This document shows, piece after piece, positions 2,054 to 25,842 of a DNA stretch of 64,000 nt. A program made the translations under genes and the position numbers. The notes beneath the pieces are model-generated. The model searched no databases and was not told the origin of the DNA. It saw only the letters and a program-made list of their open reading frames with translations. Every line of letters begins with the position of its first letter. The stretch's first letter is position 1. Source of the stretch: Alphaproteobacteria bacterium (GTDB lineage: Bacteria; Pseudomonadota; Alphaproteobacteria; SP197); the NCBI GenBank assembly GCA_965228895.1, contig OZ245842.1:4288001-4352000 (forward strand), in the 5' to 3' direction.

Positions 2054-2311
2054 CGCGCTTCTCCAGCAAATGTAGAGACTGACAATTGGTCAGCCTACAT
2101 CGGCCTAAGAAGCAGTTAGCTCGCTCGCCGCAGCAGAGTCATGTTCGCATCATGCCCTTTAAACCACCGCCAAATGACTGCGCGTTGAGGCCTCTTGAAT
2201 CCACGCCTCAAGGTTGAAGTTTCAATCGCCAATACACTATACTTTTAGGTGTAGTAGATTGTCGATAACCACGAGGGTGTCAGCTCTCACCTCAGCGTTG
2301 GAGTACCATGC

Positions 2312-2602: not shown

Positions 2603-2661
2603 AATGCGGCCGTGCAACACTGTCAAAAGAATTGCCAGCACCACGACGGAGGCTATGCCCA

Positions 2662-2943: not shown

Positions 2944-2954
2944 CGAGATGCGAT

Positions 2955-6255: not shown

Positions 6256-6315
6256 CGCATCAGCCGCATACGTCGTTGATGCTAACGATCAGCCTAGATT
6301 GGGAGGATCAGGAAC

Positions 6316-6678
6316 ATGATTACGAAAATGGGCAACGTTCTTCCGGCCAGCGCTGGCGCCGGTCGACAAAGCCTTCCCTATGCGGCGTTGGTCTCGGGTG
6401 CCCTACGCACGGAGCTTGGTGATACCCACCGAGCCCTCAAGACGATCATGATTTGGACAGGCGTGAGCGAGAGGACCGCCAAGAACTGGTTCCTGGGTAC
6501 CGTGGGTCCTAACGGTGATCACCTTATCAAGCTCGTGAGACATTCGGATGCCGTCTACGAGGCCTTCTTCGCTCGAGCAGAGAGAAATCAGGCGATCACA
6601 ATCCGAAAGCTCCGTGCGACGCGAGCCGTTGTCCAAGAGCTTTTGGCCCACATCGATCGGCTGACCGACGAGGCTTAG
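6316..6678 (+). CDS. Small HTH-like protein divergent from the recombinase
   Basis: KTIMIWTGVSERTAKNWFLG..GP HTH-like pattern; GGAGG/AGGA upstream. Confidence 0.7.
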   Translation: MITKMGNVLPASAGAGRQSLPYAALVSGALRTELGDTHRALKTIMIWTGVSERTAKNWFLGTVGPNGDHLIKLVRHSDAVYEAFFARAERNQAITIRKLRATRAVVQELLAHIDRLTDEA

Positions 6679-6816
6679 CCTCACAATGGGCCAGGGCGAA
6701 GATTCTACTGGACGCAATCTGCACTTGTTCGCATTATGTTCTCACCATGAAGAGAGGCAGATTGGAGCGGAGGGGCTTCATGCGAAACGATCAAACAACA
6801 GGTTGGAGTCGGCCGC

Positions 6817-7074
6817 ATGGACGTCCTTTCATCACTCCTCTCCATCATCGAGAACAACTTGGAGGCGCTTGCGCCAATTCTTGCAGCACTCGTTGGGGTG
6901 TGGGCTTCAAGTCGGATGACACTGCGTAAGTCCGCTGGATGTGTCGACTGCGAATCCGATCACTCTGTGAACAACGAGGTCACGTTGAATGTAACAGTGA
7001 AGTTGAAAGATAACGCTCTATCAAGCCATGCAGCAGATCGGTGTCAGACCAGTGACCAATCTACAAACGACTGA
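6817..7074 (+). CDS. Hypothetical small protein with hydrophobic N-terminus
   Basis: 85-aa ORF with GGAG upstream; no recognisable family. Confidence 0.3.
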   Translation: MDVLSSLLSIIENNLEALAPILAALVGVWASSRMTLRKSAGCVDCESDHSVNNEVTLNVTVKLKDNALSSHAADRCQTSDQSTND

Positions 7075-7356
7075 GGTAACAAACCTGACGTTATCGGTCC
7101 CGGAATCGATCGAGTAATCTGCATTGTGGAAAATCGGCGCAAAGACGTTGCTTCGCATCAGTCAACTGGAGGCCCACCTTCCACGCGACTCTGCAACAGT
7201 GTTTTTGCAACACCGATCGACAGCAGCTTGCGTGTGTTGGTTTGCGTTGCGCAAACGTGGGTTAGCGGACGAATTAGCATAAAAATGAAACGGCAAAGGA
7301 GAAGTGAGGCAATAGAGATATGGGCCCCAACGCGTAGCGGGAGCCTAGTTCTCAGG

Positions 7357-10910: not shown

Positions 10911-11086
10911 GAGTTAGCCCTGTTCGTGATGCGGTCCCTTTGGGGCCGGGTTGCGAACTCGTGGGTGTGAGTCCGTCGAGGCATTGTCTAATCATCTGGC
11001 CGAAACGATTGCAACCGGCGCGACGGCTCCAACGCGACGAGAACTAAACTAAGCATAAACGAGACAGCTACCACGTAACCGGAACG

Positions 11087-14086
11087 CTACTTAATGCCGT
11101 ACTTAAGACGGCGCTTTACGAACGCAGGCTGCGACCCCTCCAGCACGTCAACTATGCGCCGATTCATCACAGGATTTTCGATCGAACCTGTTTCATAGGA
11201 GAACTTGTAGTTCTCAGACTTCTCAAGCTTCACGTAGACGATCTGCTCGGCATCGGCTCCAACTGCCAAGTTAGGGTTGTGCGTAACCAGCACGACCTGC
11301 CTGTGTTTCTTGGCATCGCGAATGCAATTCGCCAGCACTCTAAATATGCTCTCGTTGTCCAGATTGTCCTCAGGTTGATCAATGATGAGCGGCGTGTTCT
11401 TACGATCGAGCTGGAGATAGAAGATCAAGAGAAGCAGGCCTTTTTCTCCTGGCGAGAGCTCATTCAGGTTCTTCCCGCCGAGGCGCAACTCGTACCGCGA
11501 CGACAAGTAGTCGAGCGAGAACAGGAAATCGTATAGTTCTTTGGCATCGTGCGCTTGATCCGAAATTAGGAGGTCATCTCCATTGTGACGTCTCATACTT
11601 GCTAGGAGTTGCTCACAAAAGCCAATGACGGCTTCAAAATCATCCCAGTTTGTTTCACGGACGAGCCGGGCAAGTTCCTGCTGCGCATCCTGATCGTTCT
11701 TAAAGGGACCACGTCTGCGCTGATTGATCTGGTTAAGGAACTCACGCCGAAACTCTCGATCCACAATGAAGGAAGCCTCGATCTCGATCTCAAATCCGGC
11801 AGTCCGAACGGCCTGAAGACGCTCCTCAACGCTATTCTTCAGATCACGATAGAACTGGAGAACCTGACTCTTGCTCCGATATATTTCCTGAACAATTTCG
11901 CTTCGTTCTGCAACACGGTCGACAAGAGTAGTGGCTAGGGTTTCATCGACATACTTCAAACGGTCTTTTAGCCAGAGAAGTGTTTCGGGCTTTGGTTCTT
12001 CATCGTTTCCCGCCACCTCAAGGCGCTTTGCCTTCCATGCTGCGAACCGTTCGACATACGACTGGTAACGACGTTGTGGCGTACTCAATTGCTCTTTCAA
12101 ACGTTCAATCTCGGATTCAATAAACTTGTAGGCGTTGCGAAGGTCAGGAATCGTAGCCAGGCTTGAGAATGCCGTTTCTAGAGAAAACGCTAGCTCACTC
12201 TCAGCCTCAAGAGCGCTGATCCTTGCCTGCAACTCCTCAATCTTTGTCTGCACGGGTGCTGGATCGATCTCAAACTTGACCACATCCGAAACGGCGAGCT
12301 CTAAAGCGGCAAGTGGCTCTGTCAACTCTTCGATGCCTTCTCGCGTTTGCGAGTCGAGGCTCGTCAGCCTCTCCTTTAAGGAGACCGCAGATTGAAGGTT
12401 AGTCTTTAGCGTAGTGGTTTCGGCGATCCTCTGCTGCCGAGCCTCACTCACCGATGCGAGTAGTTTTGTGAGGCGGGCGACTTCCGCCGCAAGCCCTTTT
12501 TGCGCGTCGGATTCTGTATCTGGCTTCGCAACTTCCTTTGGTACAGCATCATCCAGGGCCTTCAGCTCTTCTGTCTTGGCCTCAATCTGCCCGATCAGCC
12601 GCTTCCGAAAATGTGGTGAACTTTGGTCCTCAAGGTCAACAATCTCGACGTTCAGCTCTCTAAGTCGCCTCTTCAGTGAGCTTATCTCCTGTTTGCTTTG
12701 TAGTGTCTTTGCCTCCTCCAGCTGTGAAAATGACGACGTTCCAAGCTTCTCTGTCTCCTCAACATGTGAGAAGACGACTTCCTCAATCTCTTTCCGAAAC
12801 TGCTCTATCTCGATTTCGTTCGTAAGTTGCTCAAAATAGTTCTGCGGCAGATATCGAACTGTCTCCGGCCTATCGCGGTCACAATGATCGATTAAATGTT
12901 TCTCTTCTCTCTTACTGGTATGCCATGTGATCGCCGCCTTGAAATTTTCCGCGTAGCCGCGCTGGCGAAACTTCTTGCTCTTGGAATCGTCAGCAAGGAA
13001 CGAAAAGTAATCTTCCTGATGGCTCTCGCCCAAGAGACCTAAGATATCGACAATGGCACTCTTGCCGCTGCCTTTGTTTCCGATGATAGCAGTCAGCTCC
13101 GGGTTTAGAGGTAACTCAACTCCTTTGAACCATCGCCCATTTGCCTCACCGTACCCGTCAACTTGGTCGATCTGCAGAAGACTGAGAAACTTGGTGCCGT
13201 CCTGTTCCTGGCGGACGATAACATCGGGTTCTGAGCCGATGAATACACGACTCTCCGGTTCATGGCATATCTGCTTCAGTCCCACAAACGTTGTATCTGC
13301 CTTGATCCAGGTAGGAGGAAATCCCGCAACATTACCGCCCAGACGCTCAAGGTCTTCAAAACTGTGAGCGTCACATCCGGATACAACAGGCTTGGGGGCA
13401 GACTCGCCTTCGGCATAGCGGTCTGCTCTTAGAAAAAAGGCCTTGTTACCAGCATTCCCGAAGAAGAGGTCACTTGCCCTATCGATGCGGTCCGCAAGAT
13501 TGACTTTCCGCGGGGACTCATTGTCGGTCGACCGCAGACCATTGTTGTTTGCAGGGAACGCAACGAGATAAGGTTTTGTATCGCCGAAAGTCTCATCAAG
13601 AGCCTCGGTTAAACTATCGAGACTGACGGTCGCGGCCATTATCTGCTCTTGAGTTTGCAGATCTGAACAGCGCTGACGAACGCTTGCATCGTCAATCGAC
13701 TGAGTATCGAGGTTGGTAAGAAATCGACCGATCCGGTCTTCGTTCGTAACATCAGGATCATTGTCGAAGATCACATGAATGTCCGGGTGGCTTCCGTCCT
13801 TGCTTATCGATTCAGAAAGCCGGAACTCAATATTCACGAAAAAAACCGATTTGGATTCAGCGTACTTCTCTGCATACCGCCTGCGTAGCTCGAAGAAGCT
13901 GTCACAACTAAAGTAGTCTGTTACGCCGAATACCTGAACCGGCGATGCTTCGAGTGTGTCAATGAATCTGTCCCAGACTGCATCATCAACCCCGCCATAG
14001 GCATTGTTCAATCTTGTTCCAGGTGCGTGCAGGTGGAGGTCCCAACGTCTCCACAAAGAACCATTGCTGGCAGCTTTGCTATCCAT
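11087..14086 (-). CDS. PHP-domain + coiled-coil ABC/SMC-type ATPase (Ppl / TrlF-family anti-phage protein)
   Basis: PHP motifs WDLHLH, GVTDY, GCDAH; Walker A GNKGSGKS; coiled coil; signature LSPGEK; Walker B LIIDQPEDNLD; H-loop VTHN. Confidence 0.85.
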   Translation of the reverse strand: MDSKAASNGSLWRRWDLHLHAPGTRLNNAYGGVDDAVWDRFIDTLEASPVQVFGVTDYFSCDSFFELRRRYAEKYAESKSVFFVNIEFRLSESISKDGSHPDIHVIFDNDPDVTNEDRIGRFLTNLDTQSIDDASVRQRCSDLQTQEQIMAATVSLDSLTEALDETFGDTKPYLVAFPANNNGLRSTDNESPRKVNLADRIDRASDLFFGNAGNKAFFLRADRYAEGESAPKPVVSGCDAHSFEDLERLGGNVAGFPPTWIKADTTFVGLKQICHEPESRVFIGSEPDVIVRQEQDGTKFLSLLQIDQVDGYGEANGRWFKGVELPLNPELTAIIGNKGSGKSAIVDILGLLGESHQEDYFSFLADDSKSKKFRQRGYAENFKAAITWHTSKREEKHLIDHCDRDRPETVRYLPQNYFEQLTNEIEIEQFRKEIEEVVFSHVEETEKLGTSSFSQLEEAKTLQSKQEISSLKRRLRELNVEIVDLEDQSSPHFRKRLIGQIEAKTEELKALDDAVPKEVAKPDTESDAQKGLAAEVARLTKLLASVSEARQQRIAETTTLKTNLQSAVSLKERLTSLDSQTREGIEELTEPLAALELAVSDVVKFEIDPAPVQTKIEELQARISALEAESELAFSLETAFSSLATIPDLRNAYKFIESEIERLKEQLSTPQRRYQSYVERFAAWKAKRLEVAGNDEEPKPETLLWLKDRLKYVDETLATTLVDRVAERSEIVQEIYRSKSQVLQFYRDLKNSVEERLQAVRTAGFEIEIEASFIVDREFRREFLNQINQRRRGPFKNDQDAQQELARLVRETNWDDFEAVIGFCEQLLASMRRHNGDDLLISDQAHDAKELYDFLFSLDYLSSRYELRLGGKNLNELSPGEKGLLLLIFYLQLDRKNTPLIIDQPEDNLDNESIFRVLANCIRDAKKHRQVVLVTHNPNLAVGADAEQIVYVKLEKSENYKFSYETGSIENPVMNRRIVDVLEGSQPAFVKRRLKYGIK

Positions 14087-14835
14087 TATGTGTTCACCGC
14101 ACTACGCTTGCCATCTGGCGCTCGAAGAATTGGGGTAGAACGTCAGTTCGTTGCCGGTTATGGCGGAAAAAGATCAGCCCCATGACCGGCAAAAAGCAGC
14201 CGTTGCTAGCGTAGTTAGGGTTAGCTCTCAGGTGATCAACTATCAACGACGGTCGGTTTCTTTGAACTTCGACTATGTGCTCCATATCTCCCCAATTCTT
14301 TGCGCAACCGTTGACCCACTGTTTGCTACATACGCCCGCCCAAGCTCATGTAGCACCTGAGCGGCAGGCCTAGTCTGTTCCAAGCACACCTCTAGAGTGA
14401 CCTCGGACAGACTGCGCCGAGCTCGTACCCGTTTGCCGACATCTCTCATAACCTGGGCATCACAACCAATGGATACACATCTGTTGAGCTGTGAGTAGTA
14501 TAGAGAGATTGAGAATTCCACAGAGATCGGTGGAAAGTACAAAGACCGGATCGCGGGAAATAGGTCAGCATCCCTGCAGCAGACTTGTTGCAAGGAGTAT
14601 CCGAACAACTCAGAGAATGGCAGCTTTCTGCTGGCTCAGAGGATTGTTAAGTTGCGGTGGTGACGACGCCGAAGGCTTTTTTCACCGCATACCTCGCCTA
14701 ACTTACTGATTTGGCAAAGTGGCGACGCAGTGGCTCTCCCCCAGCGCAAGGATCATCCCGTCGACCTAGTTGCATTCCTTCTCACCAATGCTAGCGAGCC
14801 AGTTTAGCTGGGCATTTCTCGGTGCCTCATAGTCC

Positions 14836-15336
14836 TTACTCCACGACAAATAGGGCCCGTGCGACGTCGTCTATCGCCGCAAGTGCTGAGAACTGTCCCT
14901 TTCTCACAATCCGAATGTTCGGCCGTTCCGCCTTTAGGCCGGTCTTATCGCCCTTGGTGTGCTTGCCGACTCGATCGCCCAGCGGCGGAAGTTGCTCCCC
15001 TGCCCGGCCGCCAAACCAGAGAAACGGCCCCAAATCCATCGTCTCGGGATCGAACCAGATCCAGATGACACAGCCGCTCGGCTTCTCCGCCAGATTGATA
15101 TGGATACCGACATTGGCCGTCTTCGCACCGCGGTAGCTGGCCTTGAACTGGACGTGGCGCAGGACGCCATTGGACTCCAGGACGAGGTCGTAGCCGGCAC
15201 GGTCGACATCGGCCCGAAGGACCTCGATGTCGCGGGTCCCCTGGCGCCAGAGGCAGCGCAGCAGATCGCCAATAAACAGATGCTCGATGACTTTCTCACG
15301 AAGACTGGAATCGACGGTGTGGGCGGGATCGGTCAT
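14836..15336 (-). CDS. Stand-alone PD-(D/E)XK-superfamily nuclease-like protein
   Basis: EKVIEHLF...DVDRAGYDLVL...RHVQFKAS (E...D...QxK); start ATG 15336 after AGGA. Confidence 0.7.
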   Translation of the reverse strand: MTDPAHTVDSSLREKVIEHLFIGDLLRCLWRQGTRDIEVLRADVDRAGYDLVLESNGVLRHVQFKASYRGAKTANVGIHINLAEKPSGCVIWIWFDPETMDLGPFLWFGGRAGEQLPPLGDRVGKHTKGDKTGLKAERPNIRIVRKGQFSALAAIDDVARALFVVE

Positions 15337-15415
15337 GGTTCGTCCTGACAAGCTGTTGTTCCGATTGCCTAAAGCGCGACGGTGATCGCTTCCTTGCCGG
15401 GCGAAGTCCAGCAAA

Positions 15416-15450
15416 ATGAGACTCATAGTCCGTAGACTAAAAGTCAACAA
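15416..15450 (+). promoter_or_regulatory. Tandem C-box operator of an RM controller protein
   Basis: ATGAGACTCATAGTC-CGTA-GACTAAAAGTCAACAA: two GACT-N3-AGTC palindromes (15420-15430, 15435-15445) 4 nt apart, the layout of PvuII/Esp1396I-type operators; ends 18 nt before the C-gene ATG. Confidence 0.85.
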
Positions 15451-15468
15451 AACTCGCCTTCTGGCTGC

Positions 15469-15687
15469 ATGGATGTGCGCCAACGGGTCGGTATCAACGT
15501 CAGGAAGTTCCGCAAGGAGCGGCAGCTTTCCCAGGAAAAGCTCGGTTTCGCGTGCGGCCGCGACCGCACCTATATCAGCGGCATCGAGCGGGGCGAGCGC
15601 AACCCGACCGTCGTCGTCCTGGAGGAGATCGCCAAAGCCCTTGGTGTGCCGACCTCACGCCTTCTGGAGGAGGTCGAAGGGACCTAG
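15469..15687 (+). CDS. XRE-family HTH protein of the RM controller (C protein) type
   Basis: VGINVRKFRKERQLSQEKLG..CG.DRTYISGIERGERNPTV..LEEIAKALGV; the RTYISGIERG.RN recognition helix is typical of C proteins; C-box upstream, no SD. Confidence 0.88.
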   Translation: MDVRQRVGINVRKFRKERQLSQEKLGFACGRDRTYISGIERGERNPTVVVLEEIAKALGVPTSRLLEEVEGT

Positions 15688-15791: not shown

Positions 15792-16139
15792 TCATCCCCT
15801 CGTCTCCCGGGCCTGACGATCCGTGGGTACGGAGGGGTCGGTGCGGCGGAGCTTCGAGCGATACCAGCTCACCGATGCCAGGCTGGTCGAGGCGCCGGGG
15901 AACTTATCCTTGATCAAATCGAGGACCTCCTGATTGGTCTTGCCGGCCTCCAGCTCACGCCTGGCCGTCTCCCCGACCGACTTCCATCGCTCCGTAAAAA
16001 GGTAGTGATTCAGCGCCTCTCGGACGGCCTCGCTGACGGAGACCCGCGTGTCCTCGGCCATGTCGTGGAGGGCATCGACCAGTTCCTGGGGCAGGGTCAC
16101 CGTGACCCGGCGCATGTGATCGCTATCACCTCTGGTCAT
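15792..16139 (-). CDS. Ribbon-helix-helix (CopG-like) regulator with additional C-terminal domain
   Basis: MRRVTVTLPQELVDALHDMA....VSVSEAVREALNHYL; AGGAGAGG RBS. Confidence 0.8.
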   Translation of the reverse strand: MTRGDSDHMRRVTVTLPQELVDALHDMAEDTRVSVSEAVREALNHYLFTERWKSVGETARRELEAGKTNQEVLDLIKDKFPGASTSLASVSWYRSKLRRTDPSVPTDRQARETRG

Positions 16140-16159
16140 ACTAGTCCTCTCCTACATGA

Positions 16160-16209
16160 TTGACTCATAAGATCGCATACATCATATTGAGTATGAGCGA
16201 AGAAGACAA
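16160..16209. promoter_or_regulatory. Overlapping divergent sigma70-like promoters
   Basis: Plus strand: TTGACT(16160-65)-N17-CATATT(16183-88). Minus strand: TTGTCT(16209-04)-N17-TATGAT(16186-81). Confidence 0.6.
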
Positions 16210-16228
16210 GGCCTATGGAGTTGGACAC

Positions 16229-17521
16229 ATGCGCGACCTTAGCGTGACCGAGATACCCATTGCAGGGCTTGTGCCCTATCACCGCAACGCGCGGACACAC
16301 TCGAAGAAGCAGTTGCATCAGATCGCGGACTCGATCCGGACCTTCGGCTGGACCAACCCGATCCTGATCGACCGCGAGGGTGGCGTGATCGCCGGCCACG
16401 GCCGATTGGAGGCTGCCAAGCTGCTGGGCCTGAAGGCCGTCCCGACGATCCGTATCGAGGATATGAGTGAGGAGCAGAAGCGGGCCTACATCCTGGCCGA
16501 CAACAAGCTCGCCGAGAACGCCGGCTGGGATAACGAGATCCTTGCGCTGGAGCTGAAGGACCTGATCGACCTCGACCTTGAGATCGACATCACGTCAACC
16601 GGGTTCGAGATGGGCGAGATCGACGTCCTGATCGAGGGTCTGAACTCGTATACCGGACCGGACCCGGATGACGATATCCCGCCGGTCGACCCGGACCAAC
16701 CAAATGTCAGCGAGCTCGGCGAGCTCTGGCTGCTGGGCGATCACCGGCTGCTCTGCGGCAATGCCCTGGACGCTAAGATCTACGCGCGGCTGCTAGATGG
16801 CGAGCAGGCCCAGATGGTGTTCACCGACCCGCCCTACAACGTGCCCGTCGACGGTCATGTCAGCGGCTTAGGCTCGGTCAGGCATGCCGAGTTCGCGATG
16901 GCATCGGGCGAGATGTCGGAAGAGGCGTTCACGGCGTTCCTGAAGACCGTGTTCGGCCTCATGGTCGATCACAGCGTCGACGGCGCGATCCACTTCGTCT
17001 GCATGGACTGGCGCCATCTCTATGAGCTGCTGACTGCCGGCCGCGCCGCCTACAGCGAGCTGAAGAACCTCTGCGTCTGGAACAAGACGAATGGTGGCAT
17101 GGGGTCGTTCTACCGGTCCAAGCATGAGCTGGTCGCGGTGTTCAAGGCCGGCACCGCGCCACACGTCAACAACGTCGCGCTGGGCAGCCATGGCCGATAT
17201 CGCACCAATGTCTGGGACTACGCCGGTGCCAATGCGCTGGGCAACGGCCGCGACGAGGCGCTTGCCATGCACCCGACGGTGAAGCCAGTCGCCATGGTTG
17301 CCGATGCCATCCTCGACTGCTCGACCCGCGGCGGCCTGGTGCTCGACGCGTTCTCAGGCTCCGGCAGCACCATCCTGGCCGCCGAACGGACCGGACGGCG
17401 GGCGGCCGCGATCGAGATCGAGCCGCACTATGTCGACGTGGCGATCAGGCGCTTCGAAGCCTCGACCGGCATCGACGCGGTCGAGGCCAGGAGCGGCCTC
17501 AGGTTCCGGGAGCTGACATGA
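16229..17521 (+). CDS. ParB-N-terminal, phage-type N6/N4 DNA methyltransferase
   Basis: ParB motifs IAGHGRLEAA and ADNK; catalytic FTDPPYN; HPTVKPV; SAM-binding VLDAFSGSGST (beta-class order). Confidence 0.92.
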   Translation: MRDLSVTEIPIAGLVPYHRNARTHSKKQLHQIADSIRTFGWTNPILIDREGGVIAGHGRLEAAKLLGLKAVPTIRIEDMSEEQKRAYILADNKLAENAGWDNEILALELKDLIDLDLEIDITSTGFEMGEIDVLIEGLNSYTGPDPDDDIPPVDPDQPNVSELGELWLLGDHRLLCGNALDAKIYARLLDGEQAQMVFTDPPYNVPVDGHVSGLGSVRHAEFAMASGEMSEEAFTAFLKTVFGLMVDHSVDGAIHFVCMDWRHLYELLTAGRAAYSELKNLCVWNKTNGGMGSFYRSKHELVAVFKAGTAPHVNNVALGSHGRYRTNVWDYAGANALGNGRDEALAMHPTVKPVAMVADAILDCSTRGGLVLDAFSGSGSTILAAERTGRRAAAIEIEPHYVDVAIRRFEASTGIDAVEARSGLRFRELT

Positions 17522-17618
17522 GGATCTAACGGCGGGCGATGACCGGCCCGCCGAGAGGCAGGGCGCATACGAGCAACGACAGTTGGATTGACACCCAGAG
17601 CAAGCTGAGGACACGACG

Positions 17619-18116
17619 ATGGCTAAAAACCCAAACAGTAAGTCAGGCGACGAAGACGTCGGCTACCGCAACCCGCCGAAGGAGCACCGATGGCAGAAGG
17701 GCACATCAGGCAACCCAAAAGGCAGGCCGAAGGCATGTCAGAACTTCGAGACCGACGTCAAGGAGACCCTGAAAGAGCAGGTGACGGTCACCGAGAACGG
17801 CACGAAGAAGACGGTAAGTGCGCAGAAGGCCAGTCTGTTGCGCCTGAAAGAGAAGGCGCTCAAAGGTGATGCCCGGTCGCTCGACACGCTCCTGGATCTG
17901 GCGCGCATCCACAACAGCGAAGACCTAGCCGCGCAGGCCGAAGAGGCGCTCGACCCGTTGGATCAGGAGATCCTCGACGACTACTTCGAGCGGCGACTGG
18001 CACAGGAGGAGAGGCGACGGGCCGCCGAGGTCACCGAACCGCCGGTCGATGGCGATCACGAAGAAGAGAACCACGAAGACGATGAGGAGGACCCCGATGC
18101 CTGGCTCCTTGGCTGA
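17619..18116 (+). CDS. DUF5681-like protein, putative terminase small subunit
   Basis: VGYRNPPKEHRWQKGTSGNPKGRPK motif; overlaps the start of the terminase large subunit. Confidence 0.8.
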   Translation: MAKNPNSKSGDEDVGYRNPPKEHRWQKGTSGNPKGRPKACQNFETDVKETLKEQVTVTENGTKKTVSAQKASLLRLKEKALKGDARSLDTLLDLARIHNSEDLAAQAEEALDPLDQEILDDYFERRLAQEERRRAAEVTEPPVDGDHEEENHEDDEEDPDAWLLG

Positions 18117-19548
18117 CCGTCAGAGGCTCACCACACTCCTGCGAAAGGACCTGAATGCGTTCGTGCGCAAGGCGTTCAATACTGTGTCGCCAGGCGACAC
18201 GTACCTGAAGAACTGGCACATCGAGGCGATCACTTATGAGCTCTCCCGCTGCCTGGATGGCGACAACACCCGGCTACTGATCACGCAACCGCCGCGCTCG
18301 CTGAAATCTATCTGCAGCTCGGTCGCGTTCGTCGCCTGGGCGCTAGGCCACAATCCCAAACTGAGGTTCATCTGCGTGAGCTACTCCCAGGACTTCGCCG
18401 GTACGCTTGCCCGGCAGTTCCGCCAGGTGGTCGACAGCATCTGGTACAGGTCGCTGTTCCCCAGGATGCGGCTGACCAAAGACACCGGCACTGAGTGCGT
18501 CACCAGCGAGGGTGGTGGGCGCCTGGCGACCTCGATCGGCGGTACGCTGACCGGCCGCGGCGCCGACATCATCATCATCGACGATCCGCTGAAGGCCGAA
18601 GACGCTGCCTCAGACACTGCCCGAAAGGCCGTGATCGACTGGTACACCTCAACGCTCGTCACGCGTCTCAACGACAAGGAGCGCGGCGCCATCATCGTCG
18701 TCATGCAGCGACTACACGAGGAGGACCTGGCCGGTCACTTGTTGGAGCACCAGGATTGGCACCACCTCGACCTGCCGGCAATCGCGATCGAGGACCAGGA
18801 GGTCCGGATTGGGCCGGACCACGCCGACGTGCACATCCGCAAGGAAGGCGAACTGCTACACCCCGAGCGCGAGCCGTTATCGTCGCTCGAGCGCATCAAG
18901 GAGGAGATCAGTAGCCTGAGGTTCTCAGCCCAGTACCAGCAGCGGCCGGTGCCGTTGGGCGGCAACCTCGTCAAACGCGACTGGTTCAAGACCTACGACA
19001 CGCCGCCTGACTTGGGTCAAGGGAGCCGGATCGTCCAGAGCTGGGACGTCGCGACGACCGTGAGCGATACGAACAACTGGTCGGTGTGCACCACTTGGCT
19101 CATCAAGCAGAAAACGTTCTACTTGCTGGATGTCTGGCGCGGCCGCCTCGAATATCCGGACCTGAAGCGCAAGGTGATCGCACTGCAGGACGAACACGCC
19201 GCGCGGACGGTGCTGATCGAGAAGGTCAATCTTGGTGTAAGTTTAGTCCAGGACCTCAGAGTCGACAGCCCGGCCGGATTCCCGAATCCCATAGGGATCG
19301 TGCCGGACGGCGACAAGGAGACCCGGATGGAGGCGCAGAGCGCTAGGATCGAAGCGGGGCATGTCGTGTTACCCAAGAATGCGCCCTGGCTCGATACGTT
19401 CTTGAACGAACTGTTGGCATTCCCCTACGGGCGCCACGACGATCAGGTGGACAGCGTGTCGCAGTTCCTGAACTGGGCCTGGCTGCGTGACGGCAGAGGC
19501 ATGCGACTCGCGATCGTGCCGGGAGAAGCGATCCAACTGAACTACTAG
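18097..19548 (+). CDS. Phage terminase large subunit
   Basis: NWHI adenine-binding region, Walker A QPPRSLKS, Walker B IIIIDD, coupling motif MQR, nuclease acidic residues SWDVA, IEK and HDDQVDS; GAGGAGG RBS. Confidence 0.92.
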   Translation: MPGSLADRQRLTTLLRKDLNAFVRKAFNTVSPGDTYLKNWHIEAITYELSRCLDGDNTRLLITQPPRSLKSICSSVAFVAWALGHNPKLRFICVSYSQDFAGTLARQFRQVVDSIWYRSLFPRMRLTKDTGTECVTSEGGGRLATSIGGTLTGRGADIIIIDDPLKAEDAASDTARKAVIDWYTSTLVTRLNDKERGAIIVVMQRLHEEDLAGHLLEHQDWHHLDLPAIAIEDQEVRIGPDHADVHIRKEGELLHPEREPLSSLERIKEEISSLRFSAQYQQRPVPLGGNLVKRDWFKTYDTPPDLGQGSRIVQSWDVATTVSDTNNWSVCTTWLIKQKTFYLLDVWRGRLEYPDLKRKVIALQDEHAARTVLIEKVNLGVSLVQDLRVDSPAGFPNPIGIVPDGDKETRMEAQSARIEAGHVVLPKNAPWLDTFLNELLAFPYGRHDDQVDSVSQFLNWAWLRDGRGMRLAIVPGEAIQLNY

Positions 19549-19675
19549 GCGCATACGAATGCGCTACTTCAATGGGCTTTAGGGTTACAACGGCCCACAT
19601 CGATGCGCCCAGTCGGGCAGTTGGACTTTGCGGCCAAAGCAAGCGTCAGTGGCACTCGGAAGAAGGAGTGCCGGC

Positions 19676-19906
19676 ATGCGCAAACGCCAACGCAAGATCA
19701 TCACGCGACTGTTCGCAACCGCAACATCGTTGACAGAAGCTGCCCATGAAGCCTCCTGCGATGGTCAGGCGCACGATGCCGACACAGAGCAATATCAAGC
19801 GGCTGTGCGCCGCATTCTGTCGGCGACCCACGACATTAGGGTGCTGGCTGAGGTGATCGGCGAGTTGGTCGACCAAATGGACAATCCCGGAAGCACTCGG
19901 CCCTGA
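19676..19906 (+). CDS. Hypothetical small helical protein
   Basis: ATG after AAGGAG; 76 aa; no family recognised. Confidence 0.5.
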   Translation: MRKRQRKIITRLFATATSLTEAAHEASCDGQAHDADTEQYQAAVRRILSATHDIRVLAEVIGELVDQMDNPGSTRP

Positions 19907-20070
19907 AGTCCCGATGGAAAACGACTGGACAATGGCGGCCTAGCAAGCGTCCATGGTCGAACTGAAAGACCGCCTTCCTCTCGATCGCGCCCTGCCTGGC
20001 CAAGCCCGGAGGGCCTCAACAGGTGACAACGCTGGTATCGGACCGGTGCGACACATGAGAGGAAACGACC

Positions 20071-20340
20071 ATGTCATCTGCGACCACCAAGAAGGCCACC
20101 ACATCACGGGATCAAACCGCATCTGATCCCGTCGAGACCAAGACTGAAAAGGTGATCAAACTGCTGCGCCGCAAGAACGGCGCTACCATCGCCAACATCC
20201 AGAAGGCCACCGGCTGGCAGCCCCACAGCGTCCGCGGGTTCCTGTCGGGGACACTGAAGACGCGAATGGGCCTCGTCATTAAAGGCGAAACAGACGCAAA
20301 GGGCGTGCGCCACTATCGTATTGCCAGGCCTAGCAAGTGA
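20071..20340 (+). CDS. DUF3489-like winged-helix protein
   Basis: TK...VIKLLRRKNGATI..I..ATGWQPHSVRGFLSG.LK...GL.......G.RHYRI. Confidence 0.85.
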   Translation: MSSATTKKATTSRDQTASDPVETKTEKVIKLLRRKNGATIANIQKATGWQPHSVRGFLSGTLKTRMGLVIKGETDAKGVRHYRIARPSK

Positions 20341-20789
20341 TGTCGGCGCAACCAGTCAATATCGTGGCGCTTTCGGCGATGGGCCGAGACACACTGCTCG
20401 ATCTCTGGCGTCAGATTCATGACCACGACCCACCGCGCAACGCCAGCCGTCCGTTCCTGCGATACTGTATTGCCTACCGGCTTCAGGAGAGGGAGCACGG
20501 CGGGATAGACCCGGCGACACATCGTAAGCTCCATCGCCTGGCGATCGGCGGAGAGTACGCTGGATCTGCAGCACGGTCGCGAACCGCCATCAGACCGGGA
20601 ACGCGGCTTATCCGCACCTGGCAAGGTCGACCCTATGAGGCGACGGTTGTCGAAAATGGGTTCATGTTTGAAGGCAAGCGCTACCGATCGCTCTCGGCGG
20701 TCGCCCGCGCCATCACAGGAACCCGCTGGAACGGCTGGCGGTTCTTCGGTGTCGACCCCGGCCAACAAGGTAGCAAGAAGTGTCGCTGA
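20340..20789 (+). CDS. DUF2924-like protein
   Basis: IAYRLQE..HGG...PGTRLIRTWQG...Y.SLSAVARAITGTRWNGWRFFG; TGATG overlaps on both sides. Confidence 0.88.
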   Translation: MSAQPVNIVALSAMGRDTLLDLWRQIHDHDPPRNASRPFLRYCIAYRLQEREHGGIDPATHRKLHRLAIGGEYAGSAARSRTAIRPGTRLIRTWQGRPYEATVVENGFMFEGKRYRSLSAVARAITGTRWNGWRFFGVDPGQQGSKKCR

Positions 20790-22513
20790 TGGCGGTCAAG
20801 CGACCCAAGGCGACATGCGCCATCTACACCCGCAAATCGTCCGAAGAGGGGCTCGATCAGGCCTTCAACTCACTCGATGCCCAGCGCGAGGCCGGCGAGG
20901 CCTTCATCCATAGCCAGACCCATGAGGGCTGGCGTGTCCTGTCAGATCGCTATGACGACGGTGGCATCTCCGGTGCCACTATGGAACGCCCAGCCCTGAA
21001 GCGACTTCTGGCTGATATCGAGGCCGGCAAGATCGACGTTGTGGTGGTCTACAAGGTCGACCGGCTGACCAGGGCCCTCTCCGACTTCGCCAAGATGATC
21101 GAGATCTTCGACCGCCATGGCGTCTCGTTCGTCTCGGTCACCCAGCAGTTCAACACCACCACGTCCATGGGACGGTTGACCCTCAACGTGTTGCTGTCGT
21201 TCGCCCAGTTCGAGCGTGAAGTCACCGGTGAGCGCATCCGTGACAAGATCAGGGCGTCGAAGGCCAAGGGTATGTGGATGGGCGGCAGACCGCCGCTCGG
21301 CTTCGACGTCCGGGATCGCAAGTTGGTGGTCAACCCCGGCGAAGCGAAACAGGTGCGCTGGATCTTCCGGCGCTACCTGGACTTGGGTGCGATCAACCGC
21401 CTTCGCAGCGACGTCGTGAGCCAGGACATCACCAGCAAGGTCTACACCAGCAAAGCCGGGATCAGTTCCGGTGGCGGACCCTTCGGGCGTTCGGCCCTCC
21501 ATCGCTTGTTGGGCAACCACCTCTATGTCGGCGAGGTCGCCCATCGGGGCAACGTCTATCTGGGTGAGCATGAGGCGATTGTAGATCGCGAGCTCTGGGA
21601 CAAGGTACAGGCCTTGCTGGCAGAGAAACGGCAATGCGAACACGCCGGTCCGTCGACACGCCAGGTCAGCCTTCTCAAGGGCCTGATAGTTGATGCCAGC
21701 GAAAGGCGCCTGACCCCGATCCATGCCACGAAGAACGGCAAGCGCTATCGTTACTACGTCTCAAACTGCATTGTCAGCGGCTCGATCTGCGGAGCCGACG
21801 ACCGAACATGGCGCATCCCTGCTCACGAGATCGAGCAGCTGGCCATCAGCCAAATCAAAGACCTGCTCAGAGATCGCAGCAGGCTCTATGACGTTCTAAA
21901 GGCCGTGGATGCTTCGCTCGCGACAGCCGAGGCGACCTACGACCATCTGGCCGAGGTCGCCGATCGCTGGGACGAGCTTGTCCACCGCGACCAGCGCATC
22001 ATCCTCAGACACCTGCTGTCTCGCGTCACCATCGCCGATGATCAGGTCGAGGTTCACGTCCGTCCCGATGCGATCGCTCATATCGGTGTTTCAGGGGCCG
22101 ACAGCTTAATCGCTGCCAGGCCTGACGGGCGCGGCCGAACCGAGCCGGTGGTTCTGACGGTGCCCGCACGCCTGACGCGACGCGGAAGAGAACTCAAGCT
22201 CATCGTAACCGGTGAAGAGGTGGACGGCAGATTGCCGGACACCGACCTGATGGTCGCTGTGGCACGCGCCCGTCACTGGCTCGACCTCCTGATGACAGGC
22301 AAGGTCGCATCAATCAGGGATCTCGCCCTCAGCGAGAGGAAGCTCGAACGTCATATCGGCCAGCATCTAAGGCTCGCCTTTCTGGCACCCGACATCGTCG
22401 AAGCGATCCTTGATGGTAGGCAGCCACCTGAGCTCTCGCTACGCAAGCTCGTCAGGACCGACCCGCCGCTCGAATGGGGCGAACAGCGTCGACGGCTCGG
22501 ATTTGCTGGGTAG
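20789..22513 (+). CDS. Large serine recombinase (putative integrase of the tRNA-Ser element)
   Basis: CAIYTRKSSEEGL...SLDAQR, YKVDRLTR, SFAQFERE, recombinase domain; adjacent to the tRNA 3' end. Confidence 0.93.
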   Translation: MAVKRPKATCAIYTRKSSEEGLDQAFNSLDAQREAGEAFIHSQTHEGWRVLSDRYDDGGISGATMERPALKRLLADIEAGKIDVVVVYKVDRLTRALSDFAKMIEIFDRHGVSFVSVTQQFNTTTSMGRLTLNVLLSFAQFEREVTGERIRDKIRASKAKGMWMGGRPPLGFDVRDRKLVVNPGEAKQVRWIFRRYLDLGAINRLRSDVVSQDITSKVYTSKAGISSGGGPFGRSALHRLLGNHLYVGEVAHRGNVYLGEHEAIVDRELWDKVQALLAEKRQCEHAGPSTRQVSLLKGLIVDASERRLTPIHATKNGKRYRYYVSNCIVSGSICGADDRTWRIPAHEIEQLAISQIKDLLRDRSRLYDVLKAVDASLATAEATYDHLAEVADRWDELVHRDQRIILRHLLSRVTIADDQVEVHVRPDAIAHIGVSGADSLIAARPDGRGRTEPVVLTVPARLTRRGRELKLIVTGEEVDGRLPDTDLMVAVARARHWLDLLMTGKVASIRDLALSERKLERHIGQHLRLAFLAPDIVEAILDGRQPPELSLRKLVRTDPPLEWGEQRRRLGFAG

Positions 22514-22592
22514 ATCGCTGCCTCGTTCGTCCACTATCCATCCAATCTGACGACATCCACCTCGCCGAAAGTCCCTCCACAATCGGGCCAAC

Positions 22593-22754
22593 CGGAGACT
22601 GGCGGTGGATGACGGCGAGAGGCGCGATGACCGCAGTCTCCGCACTCACGCCAATGCACTTTCCACATTCGCAAAGGCCCGGCGTACGGGCGCTTCGCCG
22701 GCCGATACGACAACACCGAAAGCCGTTCCAGGTCATCTAGTTGGAGACTGGCGG
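22593..22754. repeat. GGAGACTG motif cluster / candidate att sites
   Basis: GGAGACTGGCGG at 22594-22605 and 22743-22754 (the second overlaps the tRNA CCA end); inverted copy CAGTCTCCG at 22634-22642. Confidence 0.65.
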
Positions 22755-22838
22755 AGGGAGCGGGATTCGAACCCGCGAGGGGCTTACACCCCAACACGCT
22801 TTCCAGGCGTGCGCCTTAAACCACTCGGCCATCCCTCC
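22749..22838 (-). tRNA. tRNA-Ser(GGA)
   Basis: GGAGGGATGGCCGAGTGGTTTAAGGCG CACGC-CTGGAAA-GCGTG, long variable arm, GGTTCGAATCC, CCA end; 90 nt. Confidence 0.97.
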
Positions 22839-22948
22839 TCGAAGCCGCGAAACCTAACCGCAGGCCGGGGCCGGCGCAAGCTGGCCGGAAACGGCTGAGC
22901 CCGGGGCCAATTCGGTGTAAGCTGACGCTCCCCTTCCGGTGACGGCCC

Positions 22949-23278
22949 ATGCGGCCGGGAGCGCTCAACTTGCGACGTCTCATGTCCTATCTTGGCCTGC
23001 TGCTGCTGGCTATCACTGCCGTCATCATCGTCGTTAATCTGTTCGGCGACGGCTGGCTTTCGCCAACAATCGCGGAGGTCTGGGCTTCGATTAACGCCAA
23101 TTCGCTGGTCGGCTTCGGCTCGCTCGTGGAAAACCAGATCGACCCGGATCTGTGGGTCGACTCGATCCTGCCGCTCTTGAGCCTCCCAGCCTGGTCAGTC
23201 CCGGCCGTTCTCGGCCTTATCCTCGTGCTGATCGGCAAAGGCGGCCGTCGCAAGCGCATGACGGCGGCGGGCGGCTAG
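22949..23278 (+). CDS. Small membrane protein
   Basis: Two hydrophobic segments and a basic tail; start uncertain. Confidence 0.6.
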   Translation: MRPGALNLRRLMSYLGLLLLAITAVIIVVNLFGDGWLSPTIAEVWASINANSLVGFGSLVENQIDPDLWVDSILPLLSLPAWSVPAVLGLILVLIGKGGRRKRMTAAGG

Positions 23279-23295
23279 AGCGATTCGATCGGCGG

Positions 23296-23937
23296 TCAGG
23301 TCTTGCGATAGATGACGTAGTGGACCGACGCGCCCTGATCTTTGAAGATTTCGTCCAGCCGGTTTTCGACCGTGGCGATGAGACCGTCCGTCTCAAACCC
23401 GTCGAGCATCGTCTTGAATCCTTTAGCGTCCCAGATGTCCTTATGAATGGTGAACGCCATCAAACCGCCCGGCATCAGGATACGCAGGATCTCCGGCAGA
23501 GGTTCGGGGCCGACATGGCCGCACGTGAAGGTGCCTGATGAAATCGCCGCACCATAGACGCCGTCGTCCAGGTCGAGCGGCAGGGTGATATCAGCGCGGA
23601 TCAACTGACGGTAGATGCCGCGCTCTTCGGCTTTCGCCAGCATCTCCGGCGTGATGTCGACGCCGTCGATATGGCGAAAACCCTGTTCGGCGAGATAGAC
23701 GGACGTGAGGCCGGTGCCGCAGCCGATATCGAGGACCGGCGTCGACACATCGTCGAGATGGGCGGCGAGCCGTCTTGCGATCCGGTCCGGTCCGACATAG
23801 CCGAGCTTGCCGACCATGTGGTCGTCATAAGCGCCCGACCATTCGCGATAAAATGCCTGTGCTTGATCGGCACCCTGGAGGCTATAGGCGCCTTGGACAA
23901 ATTCGTCCTTTTCCAGATCCTTCTTGTCGTCAGCCAT
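23296..23937 (-). CDS. Class I SAM-dependent methyltransferase
   Basis: [26 protein letters not shown]; start overlaps the lepA stop. Confidence 0.88.
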
Positions 23938-25732
23938 CAAGCCTGAGAGCGGCGAGGAACGCGTCCTGCGGGATCTCGACATCGCCGAACTGGCGCATGC
24001 GTTTCTTGCCGCGCTTCTGCTTTTCCAGAAGCTTGCGCTTGCGCGTGATGTCGCCGCCATAACACTTGGCCAGCACGTCTTTTCTGAGCGCGCTGATGGT
24101 TTCACGCGCGATGACCTTGCCGCCGATCGCCGCCTGAATCGGTATCTTGAAAAGCTGGCGCGGAATAAGGCCCTTCAACTTTTCACATACCGCCCGGCCA
24201 CGGCTCTCCGCGCGGCTGCGTTCGACGATCTGCGCCAGGCCATCGACCGCCTCGCCGTTGACCAGGATATCGAGGCGCACCAGATCGCCTTCGCGGTAGC
24301 CGTCGAGTTGATAGTCGAAGCTGGCGTAACCACGGCTGACCGACTTCAGGCGGTCGTAGAAATCGAACACGACCTCAGCCAGCGGCAAGCGATAGACCAC
24401 CATCGCGCGCGCGCCCGCATAGGTCAGTTCGACCTGCTCGCCGCGTTTATCGGTGCATAGCTGCAGGACCGCGCCCAGATATTCGTCGGGCACCAGGATG
24501 GTCGCCTTGATCCATGGCTCCTCGATCTTCTCGATGCGCGTGGGATCGGGCAGGTCGACGGGATTGTGCAGCTCCGACGCCTCGCCGCCGCGTTCGGTAA
24601 TGCGATAGACGACACTGGGCGCGGTCGCGATCAGATCCAGATCGAACTCGCGCTCCAGCCGCTCCTGAATGATCTCCAGATGCAGCAGGCCCAGGAAACC
24701 GCAGCGGAAACCCTGGCCTAGCGCGACGGAGCTTTCCGGCTCGAAATGGAAGCTCGCGTCGTTCAGCCGCAGCTTGCCCAGACTGTCGCGCAGGTCGTTG
24801 TAATCGCCGGCATCGGTCGGATAGAGGCCGCAGAAGACGACCGGCTGACTCGGCTTGAAGCCAGGCAGCGCATCCTCGGTGCGTTCGCGATCGTCGGTGA
24901 TCGTGTCGCCGACACGGCATTCGGCGATGTCCTTGATGGCGGCGGTGATGAACCCGATCTCGCCCGGCCCCAACTCGTCGACCAGAACGCCCTTGGGCGT
25001 AAAGATGCCGACCCGGTCAATATCGCGTACGGCGCTGGTACCCATCAGGCGGATGCGCTGGCCCTTGCGGATATGACCGTCGACCATGCGCAGCAGGATC
25101 ATGACGCCCAGATAGGCGTCATACCAACTGTCGACCAGAAGCGCCTTCAAAGGTTTCTCGGCGTCGCCCGCCTTGGGCGGCGGCAAGCGGTCGCAGATCG
25201 CCTGCAGCACGGCTTCGATGTTCTCGCCGGTCTTGGCGGAGACGGGCACCGCGTCGGACGCGTCGATGCCGACGACGTCTTCGATGTTCTGTTTGACACG
25301 ATCGACATCGGCGGCCGGCAGGTCGATCTTGTTGATCACCGGCAGGATCTCGAGATCCGCATCGACCGCCATATAGGCGTTGGCGACGGTCTGCGCCTCG
25401 ACACCCTGGGTCGAATCGACGATCAGCATGGCGCCCTCGCAGGCGCGCAGGGACCGGCTGACCTCATAGGTGAAATCGACATGGCCGGGCGTGTCGATCA
25501 GATTGATCAGATAGGTCTCGCCATCGGCCGCGACGAAACTCAGGCGCACCGTCTGGGCCTTGATGGTGATCCCGCGCTCGCGCTCCAGATCCATGGCGTC
25601 AAGCACCTGGCCGCGCATTTCGCGCGCGTCGAGCCCGCCGCACGCCTCGATCAGGCGGTCGGCCAAGGTCGACTTGCCGTGATCGATGTGCGCGATGATC
25701 GCGACATTGCGAATATGCGAAAGATCGGTCAT
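23930..25732 (-). CDS. lepA: Translation elongation factor 4 (LepA)
   Basis: [48 protein letters not shown]. Confidence 0.98.
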
Positions 25733-25742
25733 GGGTTTCCGT

Positions 25743-25842
25743 TTAGAGCAGATCCTGTCTTGATGGAATCGCTTCGCGATTCCGTCAAGGCGGGTGAATC
25801 TGCTCTACTCATAGATGGAGAGCGGATCGTGGTCCGCTCTAG
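25743..25842. repeat. Palindromic intergenic repeat, copy 1 (second unit internally deleted)
   Basis: TAGAGCAGATCC...GAATCTGCTCTA followed by AGAGCGGA...TCCGCTCTAG; homologous to 42393-42532; three GANTC sites. Confidence 0.85.

Follow-up and report, generated by a model that had tools for sequence, protein, structure and literature searches.

Introduction

To our knowledge, the bacteriophage satellites described so far either borrow the large terminase subunit (TerL) of a helper, as phage-inducible chromosomal islands (PICIs), P4 and PICMI do, or build a capsid of their own, as capsid-forming PICIs (cf-PICIs) do. In this study, we analyzed a 64,000-nucleotide stretch of an alphaproteobacterial chromosome (G000:C1:4288001-4352000, hereafter the window, from a 5.53 Mb genome in a single contig); positions below are those of the window unless genome coordinates are indicated. 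At 15.4-22.75 kb it holds a module in which a DNA methyltransferase, a DUF5681 protein in the position of a small terminase subunit (TerS), TerL, DUF3489 and DUF2924 proteins and a large serine recombinase lead up to a tRNA-Ser(gga) gene. We read this module as the core of an integrative element of satellite type, which would bring along a terminase and a methylase and use borrowed capsids, and assign this reading a probability of about 0.5. A first-pass annotation of the same DNA had proposed a satellite-like class with its own terminase; this is still the best reading, though as a whole that interpretation is supported in part. If it holds, an element that brings the packaging motor alone would represent a third hijacking strategy.

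The cf-PICIs are integrative satellites with their own TerS and TerL, capsid, portal, protease and head-tail adaptors, borrowing only tails, and their packaging does not depend on the terminase of the helper. The island resembles them in its TerL, which is certain, and its TerS, a role given to DUF5681 from its position and a complex model; it differs in that no portal, capsid or primase-replicase was found and in that its integrase is a serine recombinase accompanied by DUF2924. PICMI is a minimal satellite, the core genes of P4 are psu, delta, sid, alpA and a primase, and those of the PICI-like elements (PLEs) are RepA and PLE-specific genes. No primase or replicase matched among the scanned open reading frames (ORFs) of the island, no profile search having been aimed at P4 or PLE genes as such. 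The island also differs from integrative and conjugative elements, since no relaxase or type IV secretion system (T4SS) matched in the scanned ORFs, the small ones having been scanned in part.

The accessible part of PMC10085698 gives the PICI core as an integrase, a regulator, a primase-replicase, a capsid-morphogenesis gene and TerS, mentions the TerL and capsid of cf-PICIs, and indicates that SatelliteFinder treats tyrosine and serine integrases as interchangeable. Like PICIs and the Staphylococcus aureus pathogenicity islands, our island has an integrase at one end (here a large serine recombinase, proximal to the tRNA), a repressor-type regulator, a packaging gene (in PICIs one that diverts the capsids of the helper), defence or accessory cargo and integration at fixed sites. 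PICIs carry TerS only and rely on the TerL of the helper, whereas the island has a full TerL of its own. PICIs also carry a primase-replicase, and often a capsid-morphogenesis gene, in a median of 9.5 kb, and none of these genes was found in the island. Its regulators, one of the ribbon-helix-helix (RHH) type and one XRE/C-like, are not homologues from the PICI list of alpA, merR and stl. The virion-encapsidated integrative mobile elements (VEIMEs) are likewise small integrative elements known from sequence or particles; the accessible part of PMC9618062 gives them small terminases and "motor-like ATPases", and in some cases serine recombinases, and that part mentions no large terminase. PLEs also use a serine recombinase according to the same part of that source (PMC9618062).

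A gene order with a matching backbone is that of the temperate phage WO of Wolbachia, for which the accessible part of PMC10299305 gives a methylase, TerL, head and baseplate genes, DUF2924 and a serine recombinase at the prophage end. WO and the Acidithiobacillus phage AcaML1 share with the island a ParB_N-methylase and a terminase, followed by DUF2924 and a large serine recombinase at the end of the prophage. WO differs in that head, baseplate and tail genes stand between terminase and DUF2924, where the islands have cargo or almost nothing; in addition, its TerL is annotated as lambda-like and that of the island is of the Terminase_6 type, and tblastx of the WO TerL stretches against the islands gave no match. 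Our literature search retrieved no description of such an architecture; the supplements of PMC9618062 and PMC10085698 and subscription journals were outside its reach. By family, it returned DUF2924 only in Wolbachia work, nothing on DUF3489 with a terminase, and DUF5681 only in unrelated phage work.

Gene content and coupling of the module

Pfam and PHROG profiles and ARAGORN recovered all the genes named by the first-pass annotation, at or close to where it had placed them, and its description of tight coupling is borne out by ORF overlaps of 68 nt (DUF5681/TerL), 4 nt (DUF3489/DUF2924) and 10 nt (DUF2924/recombinase). Two genes had escaped it, a 72-aa helix-turn-helix (HTH) gene at 15469-15687 and a 92-aa ORF at 19628-19906, both on the forward strand. 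The block has a GC content of 61-64%, and its larger genes have a GC3 of 0.76-0.84, which is host-like. Rfam found nothing but the tRNA over 14-24 kb.

The packaging operon is preceded by a divergent control region of 53 nt (16140-16192), in which a promoter-like TTGACT-17 nt-CATATT and an imperfect inverted repeat can be read by eye. To its left, on the reverse strand, lies the RHH regulator (CopG/Arc-like, 15792-16139; RHH_1 1.4e-10, with matches to Arc-like and CopG-like repressor PHROGs). In other loci this slot before the methylase is filled by non-orthologous small genes, such as an HTH_3 gene in L047 and weakly MerR-like genes. The 72-aa XRE-type gene further left, where the block of host-like GC ends (phmmer against the PDB: C.BclI 5.2e-11, C.AhdI 7.2e-10) is a possible second regulator resembling the controller (C) proteins of restriction-modification (R-M) systems, and is placed in the element only by its position. 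To the right of the control region, on the forward strand, the ParB_N/Srx-like protein with an N6/N4 DNA methyltransferase domain occupies 16193-17521 (ParB_N 5e-07, N6_N4_Mtase 1.2e-26, phrog_498 4.6e-126). Its frame is open from a TTG at 16160, and the in-frame ATG at 16193 appears the more likely start. An 87-aa ORF on the reverse strand (16136-16399) overlaps the N-terminus and ParB domain of the methylase and is probably spurious.

DUF5681 (17619-18116, 6.4e-23) and an intact TerL with ATPase and RNaseH-like nuclease domains (18049-19548; phrog_38 7.8e-115, Terminase_6C 2.8e-11) follow on the same strand. The 92-aa ORF behind them has no Pfam or PHROG match and has two paralogues (55-61% identity) in a third island of the same genome. 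Next come the small DUF3489 gene (20071-20340, forward, 1.4e-23), whose product probably binds DNA and had no match among PDB sequences, DUF2924 (20337-20789, forward, 5.7e-42), translationally coupled to the recombinase, and the 577-aa large serine recombinase or integrase (20780-22513, forward; Resolvase 4.5e-39, Recombinase 7.2e-12, phrog_95 1.8e-100). DUF2924 also adjoins the serine recombinases of phages WO and AcaML1. Since it is coupled to the recombinase everywhere, these phages included, its gene context would fit a constant accessory subunit of the recombinase no less well than a regulated directionality factor, the candidate role that the first-pass annotation had given to DUF2924 and DUF3489. 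An AF2 model of DUF2924 (pLDDT 81) gave no significant fold match, those to a CcrM chain and an MPND-DNA complex being too weak for use.

DUF5681 as a candidate small terminase subunit

The N-terminal part of DUF5681 contains an invariant basic motif, and its C-terminal helices are long. In the complex model its C-terminal helix (109-136) lies on residues 20-59 and 257-261 of TerL, with a median ipSAE of 0.83 against 0.01 for the best control, at least 86% of contacts common to the runs and a partner pLDDT of at least 65. In benchmarks, 58 of 80 solved complexes attained an ipSAE of 0.83, as did 2 of 110 mismatched pairs. The model supports a predicted binding of DUF5681 to the N-terminus of TerL, and together with its TerS position it leads us to propose DUF5681 as the small terminase subunit. 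In the BFVD database it matched only other DUF5681 phage proteins, and the best hit of a wide VIA structure search was an unrelated helical chain (Z 5.1).

Two loci from one genus, L048 and L056, are close to each other in methylase (83%), DUF2924 (91%) and recombinase (80%), and far apart in TerL (54%) and DUF5681 (56%). The elements are thus mosaic, and the TerS-TerL pair has been swapped as a unit. To judge from these sequences, such an exchange of cassettes would fit a matching to different helpers.

Distribution in genomes and metagenomes

When 401 species-level genomes were sampled evenly across the class, 41 of them, G000 included, had TerL relatives (E<=1e-60). For the 40 best TerL loci outside the window we took ~5 kb upstream and 14 kb downstream and searched these stretches in tblastn with the proteins of the module and with nine probes for portals, connectors and capsids. 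DUF2924 and the recombinase were linked to TerL in 22 of the 40 loci. They followed TerL in the same orientation, at 0.27-9.7 kb, in 19 loci, 17 of which also had the ParB-methyltransferase and DUF5681, and stood divergently before the methylase in three, all of which had both. A portal followed TerL in eight loci, none of which had either gene, and the remaining ten had neither recombinase nor portal in the stretch fetched (five with the ParB-methyltransferase and DUF5681). Among these ten, three are cut by contig ends and two use a second type of recombinase, as at 4693-6255 in the window. Overall, the ParB-methylase precedes DUF5681-TerL in 25 of the 40 loci, and DUF3489 gave a tblastn match before DUF2924 in about half of the related loci. 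Recombinase- or methylase-linked copies occur in roughly one in 20 of the species-level genomes sampled in the class; the recurrence in Alphaproteobacteria that the first-pass annotation had mentioned is therefore real.

Beyond the class, a phylum-level sample had TerL matches at E<=1e-80 in 22 of 401 genomes and added 14 loci, four of them with the full gene string; two of the four come from another class, and both stand at tRNA-Ser(gga). A search of genome contigs with the single TerL added two weak loci only. The IMG/VR collection, scanned with the TerL alignment, yielded 573 relatives, and we classified the best 80 (contigs of 4-35 kb). The recombination genes were co-oriented after TerL in 45, divergent upstream in seven, inverted after TerL in eight and upstream in the same orientation in three, giving 63 recombinase-linked contigs; three were portal-linked, without methylase or DUF5681, and 14 had TerL without a recombinase on the contig. 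The ParB-methylase precedes DUF5681-TerL in 60 of the 80. Terminal repeats were found on none of the 80, giving no evidence for circles. These best 80 matches are all short and all filed as viral, and elements of the kind proposed here would explain why isolated terminases so frequently receive the label "defective prophage" or "viral contig". In a phage collection the best TerL match (37.6% identity) was on a 5.4-kb faecal scaffold with a recombinase, DUF2924, methylase and DUF5681; no cultured phage had a TerL above 38% identity, and in the four examined the portal came directly after TerL.

The recombinases repeatedly face tRNA genes. Their 3' end faces a tRNA 3' end at ~0.2-1.1 kb in nine of the 19 co-oriented and one of the three divergent loci (Val, Met in four, Ser-cga in two, Ser-gga in two, and Ser-tga), as it does in the two full copies and the third island of G000 and in L156, L157 and L164. 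A tRNA lies 4.4-6.8 kb away in three more loci, and the remaining loci have no tRNA in the stretch. Four copies, from three families, stand at tRNA-Met beside rpoD/dnaG. In L137, an IMG/VR contig, DUF2924, recombinase, methylase, DUF5681 and TerL are all co-oriented and tRNA-Gln comes directly after TerL; from this order it follows that in some members the terminase end, and not the recombinase end, abuts the tRNA.

From this distribution we tentatively suggest that the islands form a major unrecognized class of satellites without capsid or replication genes, with a swappable TerS-TerL pair and a methylase, DUF2924-assisted integration at tRNAs and cargo of up to ~60 kb carried in helper capsids, in Alphaproteobacteria and at least one further class. 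The somewhat greater confidence stated above belongs to the window element.

TerL phylogeny and selection

In the TerL tree a branch with an SH-aLRT of 100 separates all 34 TerLs found in island contexts from 10 portal-linked rows and from L046, to which no portal is linked. Thirty of the 34 had been labelled by context beforehand, while L021, L031, L053 and L057, of unknown context, joined after the first tree. The tree was rebuilt without the cultured-phage rows L074 and L075, which in the first tree had fallen inside the island clade on branches of 3.25 and 2.27, a placement we treated as unreliable. Just outside the island clade, the nearest portal-linked TerLs (41-48% identity) belong to head clusters of the type of phage HK97 and the gene transfer agent of Rhodobacter capsulatus (RcGTA). 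In these clusters a PF04860 portal and a PF05065 capsid come after TerL (Pfam confirms both in two portal-linked loci), RcGTA-like agents having a prohead protease as well and no integrase, and neither ParB-methylase nor DUF5681 nor recombinase is present in any of the eight loci, whereas the TerL of the islands precedes recombination genes.

Residues K86/S87, D178/D179, D333, E391 and D465/D468, which we take to be the P-loop, the Walker B motif and the nuclease acids, respectively, are retained in 32-34 of the 34 island TerLs and in 12-13 of 13 others. The dN/dS ratio was 0.10 in the one unsaturated pair (dS 0.21) and 0.12-0.23 in pairs with a dS above 1.

These data bear on the possibility that the module is the decaying end of a prophage, that is, the integrase-proximal and packaging genes of a WO-like phage that has lost its structural block. 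The matching backbone of WO speaks for such a descent, as do several related loci that are visibly decayed. The first-pass annotation had looked to portal or capsid genes and to relaxed selection on TerL as the marks of this history. No such gene was found in the element or adjoining TerL in related loci (no portal next to TerL in any of the 34 island-clade loci), and TerL is under purifying selection with its catalytic residues retained. The clade is deep (identities down to ~40%), with intact ORFs; the TerL of WO is lambda-like and unmatched, and those of cultured phages reach at most 38%. A defective prophage would also differ in that the architecture is kept in 22 of 40 loci and in 63 of the 80 best IMG/VR contigs. 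Because portal and capsid are missing beside TerL, selection is purifying and recurrence is wide, a decayed prophage is very unlikely here, and as a general explanation it is largely refuted.

Search for virion, replication and transfer genes

Families of virion proteins, replication initiators, primases, replicases, helicase-primases, relaxases and T4SS components had no match among the ORFs of the module, 21 of the 22 cargo ORFs of at least 230 aa and 14 smaller ones. The absence of virion, replication and relaxase genes noted in the first-pass annotation thus extends over the 50 kb scanned. The prophage features portal, major capsid and tail were absent for the families searched; no search was aimed at lysis genes. 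In tblastx of the three G000 islands against 11 phage and gene transfer agent (GTA) loci, the only matches were the methylase, TerL, DUF2924 and the recombinase. Genome-wide, G000 had no match to PF04860, PF05065, PF05136, PF05133, PF03864, PF10145 or PF04984; the Mu portal PF06074 also had none, but the control genomes were silent too. Among carrier genomes, portals were found with PF04860 in nine of 22, with PF05136 in three of 23 and with PF05133 in none of 23. None was near the module, and the closest was 110 kb away.

The locus could still belong to an entire virus, or a virus-like element, with shell genes that have diverged beyond recognition or lie elsewhere in the genome, and several island ORFs are indeed without a family match. 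We regard this as highly improbable, since many members seem to have room for only ~5-8 kb from the flanking genes to the tRNA, and the gaps after TerL, of 55 nt to 10 kb, are occupied by defence or metabolic genes wherever they were scanned. Moreover, the window island has no portal-sized unannotated ORF, and the genome-wide hallmark searches were negative.

A different role for the terminase would be that of a fixed packaging origin, from which, as in lateral transduction or a GTA, neighbouring chromosomal DNA is packaged in situ into helper or GTA heads with no excision. This would fit the replication genes not found, the RcGTA/HK97-type head clusters of the nearest portal-linked TerLs, and the ~57-60 kb of the G000 islands, which exceed most known satellites. 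It is nevertheless quite unlikely: a PF04860 portal is lacking in 13 of 22 carrier genomes and G000 has neither an HK97 portal nor capsid, transcription from terS to terL in the common arrangement runs away from the cargo and into core genes, and a conserved integrase with multiple tRNA targets favours movement of the element.

Target site and element boundaries

The junction between element and chromosome (attR region, 22514-22748) lies between the recombinase and tRNA-Ser(gga) (22749-22838, reverse strand; ARAGORN, and Rfam tRNA at 61.9 bits), the integration target, whose 3' end points toward the recombinase gene. Homology to two genomes of sister species in the same genus begins at ~22718-22739, 10-30 nt outside the tRNA, and the core genes lepA and pheT lie to its right. 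All that one sister genome retains of a related recombinase at this tRNA is a remnant of 205 C-terminal residues, which shows that tRNA-Ser(gga) is a recurrently used attachment site; it also flanks the related elements L042, L047, L142, L156 and L157.

Direct repeats were sought as exact k-mers of at least 14 nt and by blastn-short around the tRNA and throughout 80-110 kb upstream, with nothing above chance. In related loci repeats of at least 11 nt were absent from 11 of 13, and two had single 11-mers. Such missing repeats are expected for serine integrases and give no left end. A contig that skips from 16340 to 25382 was rejected as an excision joint, one of its sides resting on just 20 nt.

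The public runs X3 and X4, both marine metagenomes, contain relatives only. A 4.7-kb marine contig, record 17 of run X3 (window 16796-22776), matches the methylase end together with the 92-aa ORF, DUF3489, DUF2924 and the recombinase at 85-90% similarity, and has only ~1.1 kb where the 2.4 kb of DUF5681 and TerL are expected. It is either a relative that has lost its terminase or a chimeric assembly.

A model for the element and what weighs against it

In the model that we favour, the recombinase with DUF2924, and usually DUF3489, would insert the element at the 3' end of a tRNA, while the divergent repressor-type gene (RHH, possibly with the XRE/C-like protein) would hold down the ParB-methyltransferase-DUF5681-TerL operon. 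Infection or induction of a helper would derepress the operon, and the element would excise. DUF5681 would recognize a site on the element and recruit TerL, which would dock on helper procapsids and pump in element DNA modified by the methylase, in which the first-pass annotation had suggested a means of R-M evasion. The helper would probably be of the HK97/RcGTA type, because the nearest portal-bearing TerL relatives belong to such head clusters. Cargo such as defence and metal-resistance genes would ride between TerL and the recombination genes, or beyond the methylase. We infer excision, packaging, the helper and the part of the methylase; what we observe is the anatomy of the module and its conservation, purifying selection, targeting of tRNAs, the missing virion genes and a predicted interface of DUF5681 with TerL. 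Such elements would offer several points to test: a new small-terminase family in DUF5681, a serine-integrase partner in DUF2924, and a helper range possibly set by exchange of TerS-TerL cassettes.

Several points weigh against this model. No replication gene was found in the scanned ORFs of the island, which matters because a pac-type terminase normally requires concatemers. Any helper must come from outside the genome, since G000 has none of the virion hallmark families searched. The shell search itself covered three to four portal and two capsid families, which a divergent or novel shell gene could escape. DUF5681 had no Foldseek match to solved TerS in the PDB at E<=0.001, so that a TerS fold is neither shown nor excluded. 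With no repeats and no synteny on the left with the two same-genus genomes, the left end cannot be fixed, and the assembled (Logan) contigs of four public runs, none of them listed as RNA, showed no credible excision joint, although such contigs say nothing on excision or expression. Composition also separates the parts, as the module is host-like and the ~50 kb to its left (genome 4,253,500-4,303,500) has a GC content of 50-59%; the cargo may be separate islands accreted beside a small element. Finally, some relatives are decayed: L020 has no methylase or DUF5681, the TerL of L058 is split, the third island of G000 has no terminase, a sister genome retains a recombinase stub, and a metagenome contig is too short between the methylase and the 92-aa ORF to hold TerL.

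Cargo and phage defence

The first-pass annotation had spoken of 22 kb of visible island; the low-GC island as a whole runs over ~57 kb (genome 4,253,500-4,310,740). A sharp step in GC content at ~15.0-15.5 kb points to separate histories of the 7-kb core and the 50-kb cargo. The cargo may move together with the 7-kb module or apart from it. The cargo ORF of at least 230 aa left out of the scan is 291 aa long, equal in length to a scanned IS3 transposase ORF, and two of the 21 large ORFs scanned had no match at all.

The cargo visible in the window (1-15468) comprises IS3, a HicB-like gene, a second serine recombinase with two ParB/RepB-like genes, OloA/OloB, a 999-aa SMC/ABC-type ATPase and an ORF with a weak PD-(D/E)XK match. 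The Olokun pair (OloB 7e-206, OloA 8.6e-99) and then the 999-aa ATPase, which weakly matches the mad3, Ppl, AriA and GajA models, occupy 7357-14086 on the reverse strand. Upstream of the window the cargo includes IS110 and IS3 transposases, a P-type ATPase, a MerR regulator, PCuAC, CtaG, two SCO1, DsbA/ScsC and DsbD, together with a multicopper oxidase and a MerA-like flavoprotein, a set for copper and mercury resistance. In other loci the genes beside TerL, where scanned, include a set of the cyclic-oligonucleotide-based antiphage signalling system (CBASS; patatin, CD-NTase, E1/E2) with a C5 methylase, a type I R-M HsdR, EcoRII/Dcm, a DsbD-like protein and an ADP-ribosylglycohydrolase, among others. 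Cargo of this kind beside the module is, by analogy, typical of satellites and defence islands. Elements that carry Olokun, CBASS, R-M and copper or mercury resistance may be an important route of the spread of these systems.

The same richness in defence genes suggests that the module itself could be a weapon, an alternative that the first-pass annotation had raised too, whose terminase and methylase disrupt the packaging of infecting phages by cutting or mis-packaging concatemers or by titrating procapsids, its spread being rare or achieved otherwise. Purifying selection on TerL and the lack of replication genes would fit a benefit to host or island as well as transfer. We consider this unlikely, for an integrase at tRNA sites invariably accompanies the module, which moves across distant lineages and sites, and interference needs no TerS-like partner, methylase and integrase in fixed order. 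Moreover, the two roles are compatible, as satellites interfere by packaging themselves.

Further islands in the same genome and other features

A tblastn search with the module proteins found a second full copy in G000, in the same order and beside tRNA-Met, at genome 322,286-328,134, with identities of 58% for the methylase, 29% for DUF5681, 53% for TerL, 40% for DUF3489, 38% for DUF2924 and 49% for the recombinase. A third set beside tRNA-Ser(cga), at genome 875,6xx-878,788, consists of the 92-aa ORF, DUF3489, DUF2924 and the recombinase, with no terminase; its ParB-methylase is 53 kb off, at the other end of a low-GC stretch. With a second complete and a third partial copy in the genome, the module is not a chance remnant. 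The other two low-GC stretches (genome 321,968-~381,600 and 875,634-~934,000) are similar in size to that of the window, each being ~57-60 kb by rough bounds from GC content and a few flanking core genes. Their similar sizes could reflect a headful limit of the capsid or be a coincidence.

A fourth, different small island (L173) lies beside tRNA-Lys(ctt) at genome 1,226,108-~1,240,000. A tyrosine integrase, a TIR-domain protein and a 540-aa ORF that weakly matches TerL_ATPase (25 bits) are encoded there, and no portal-sized ORF follows this terminase-like gene.

The 520-aa second serine recombinase of the window (4693-6255) and the two 290-aa ParB/RepB-like genes that follow it form one operon on the reverse strand (2955-6255). 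A set 44-51% identical to this trio lies 6 kb after the ParB-methyltransferase/TerL module in L051, and in L030 a recombinase related to the 520-aa one stands before the module. The trio may be an alternative integration module of such islands or a separate stacked element.

Two opposed 291-aa ORFs, at genome 4,267,094-4,289,193 (to 1193 in the window), bracket ~21 kb of mercury- and copper-resistance genes within the island. The right-hand one (318-1193) is an IS3-family transposase and the left-hand one is outside the scan; by its layout the pair looks like a composite transposon. At 14836-15687 the C-protein-like HTH gene abuts an opposite-strand 215-aa ORF, the one with the weak PD-(D/E)XK match. 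Together with the ParB-methyltransferase these two could make up an R-M-like unit, the first two not being conserved in related loci. Downstream of lepA, at 25744-25828, is an 84-nt element of very high summed contig depth, present in dozens of copies (83-95% identity) in both same-genus genomes, which is a dispersed repeat resembling miniature inverted-repeat transposable elements or repetitive extragenic palindromes (MITE/REP-like).

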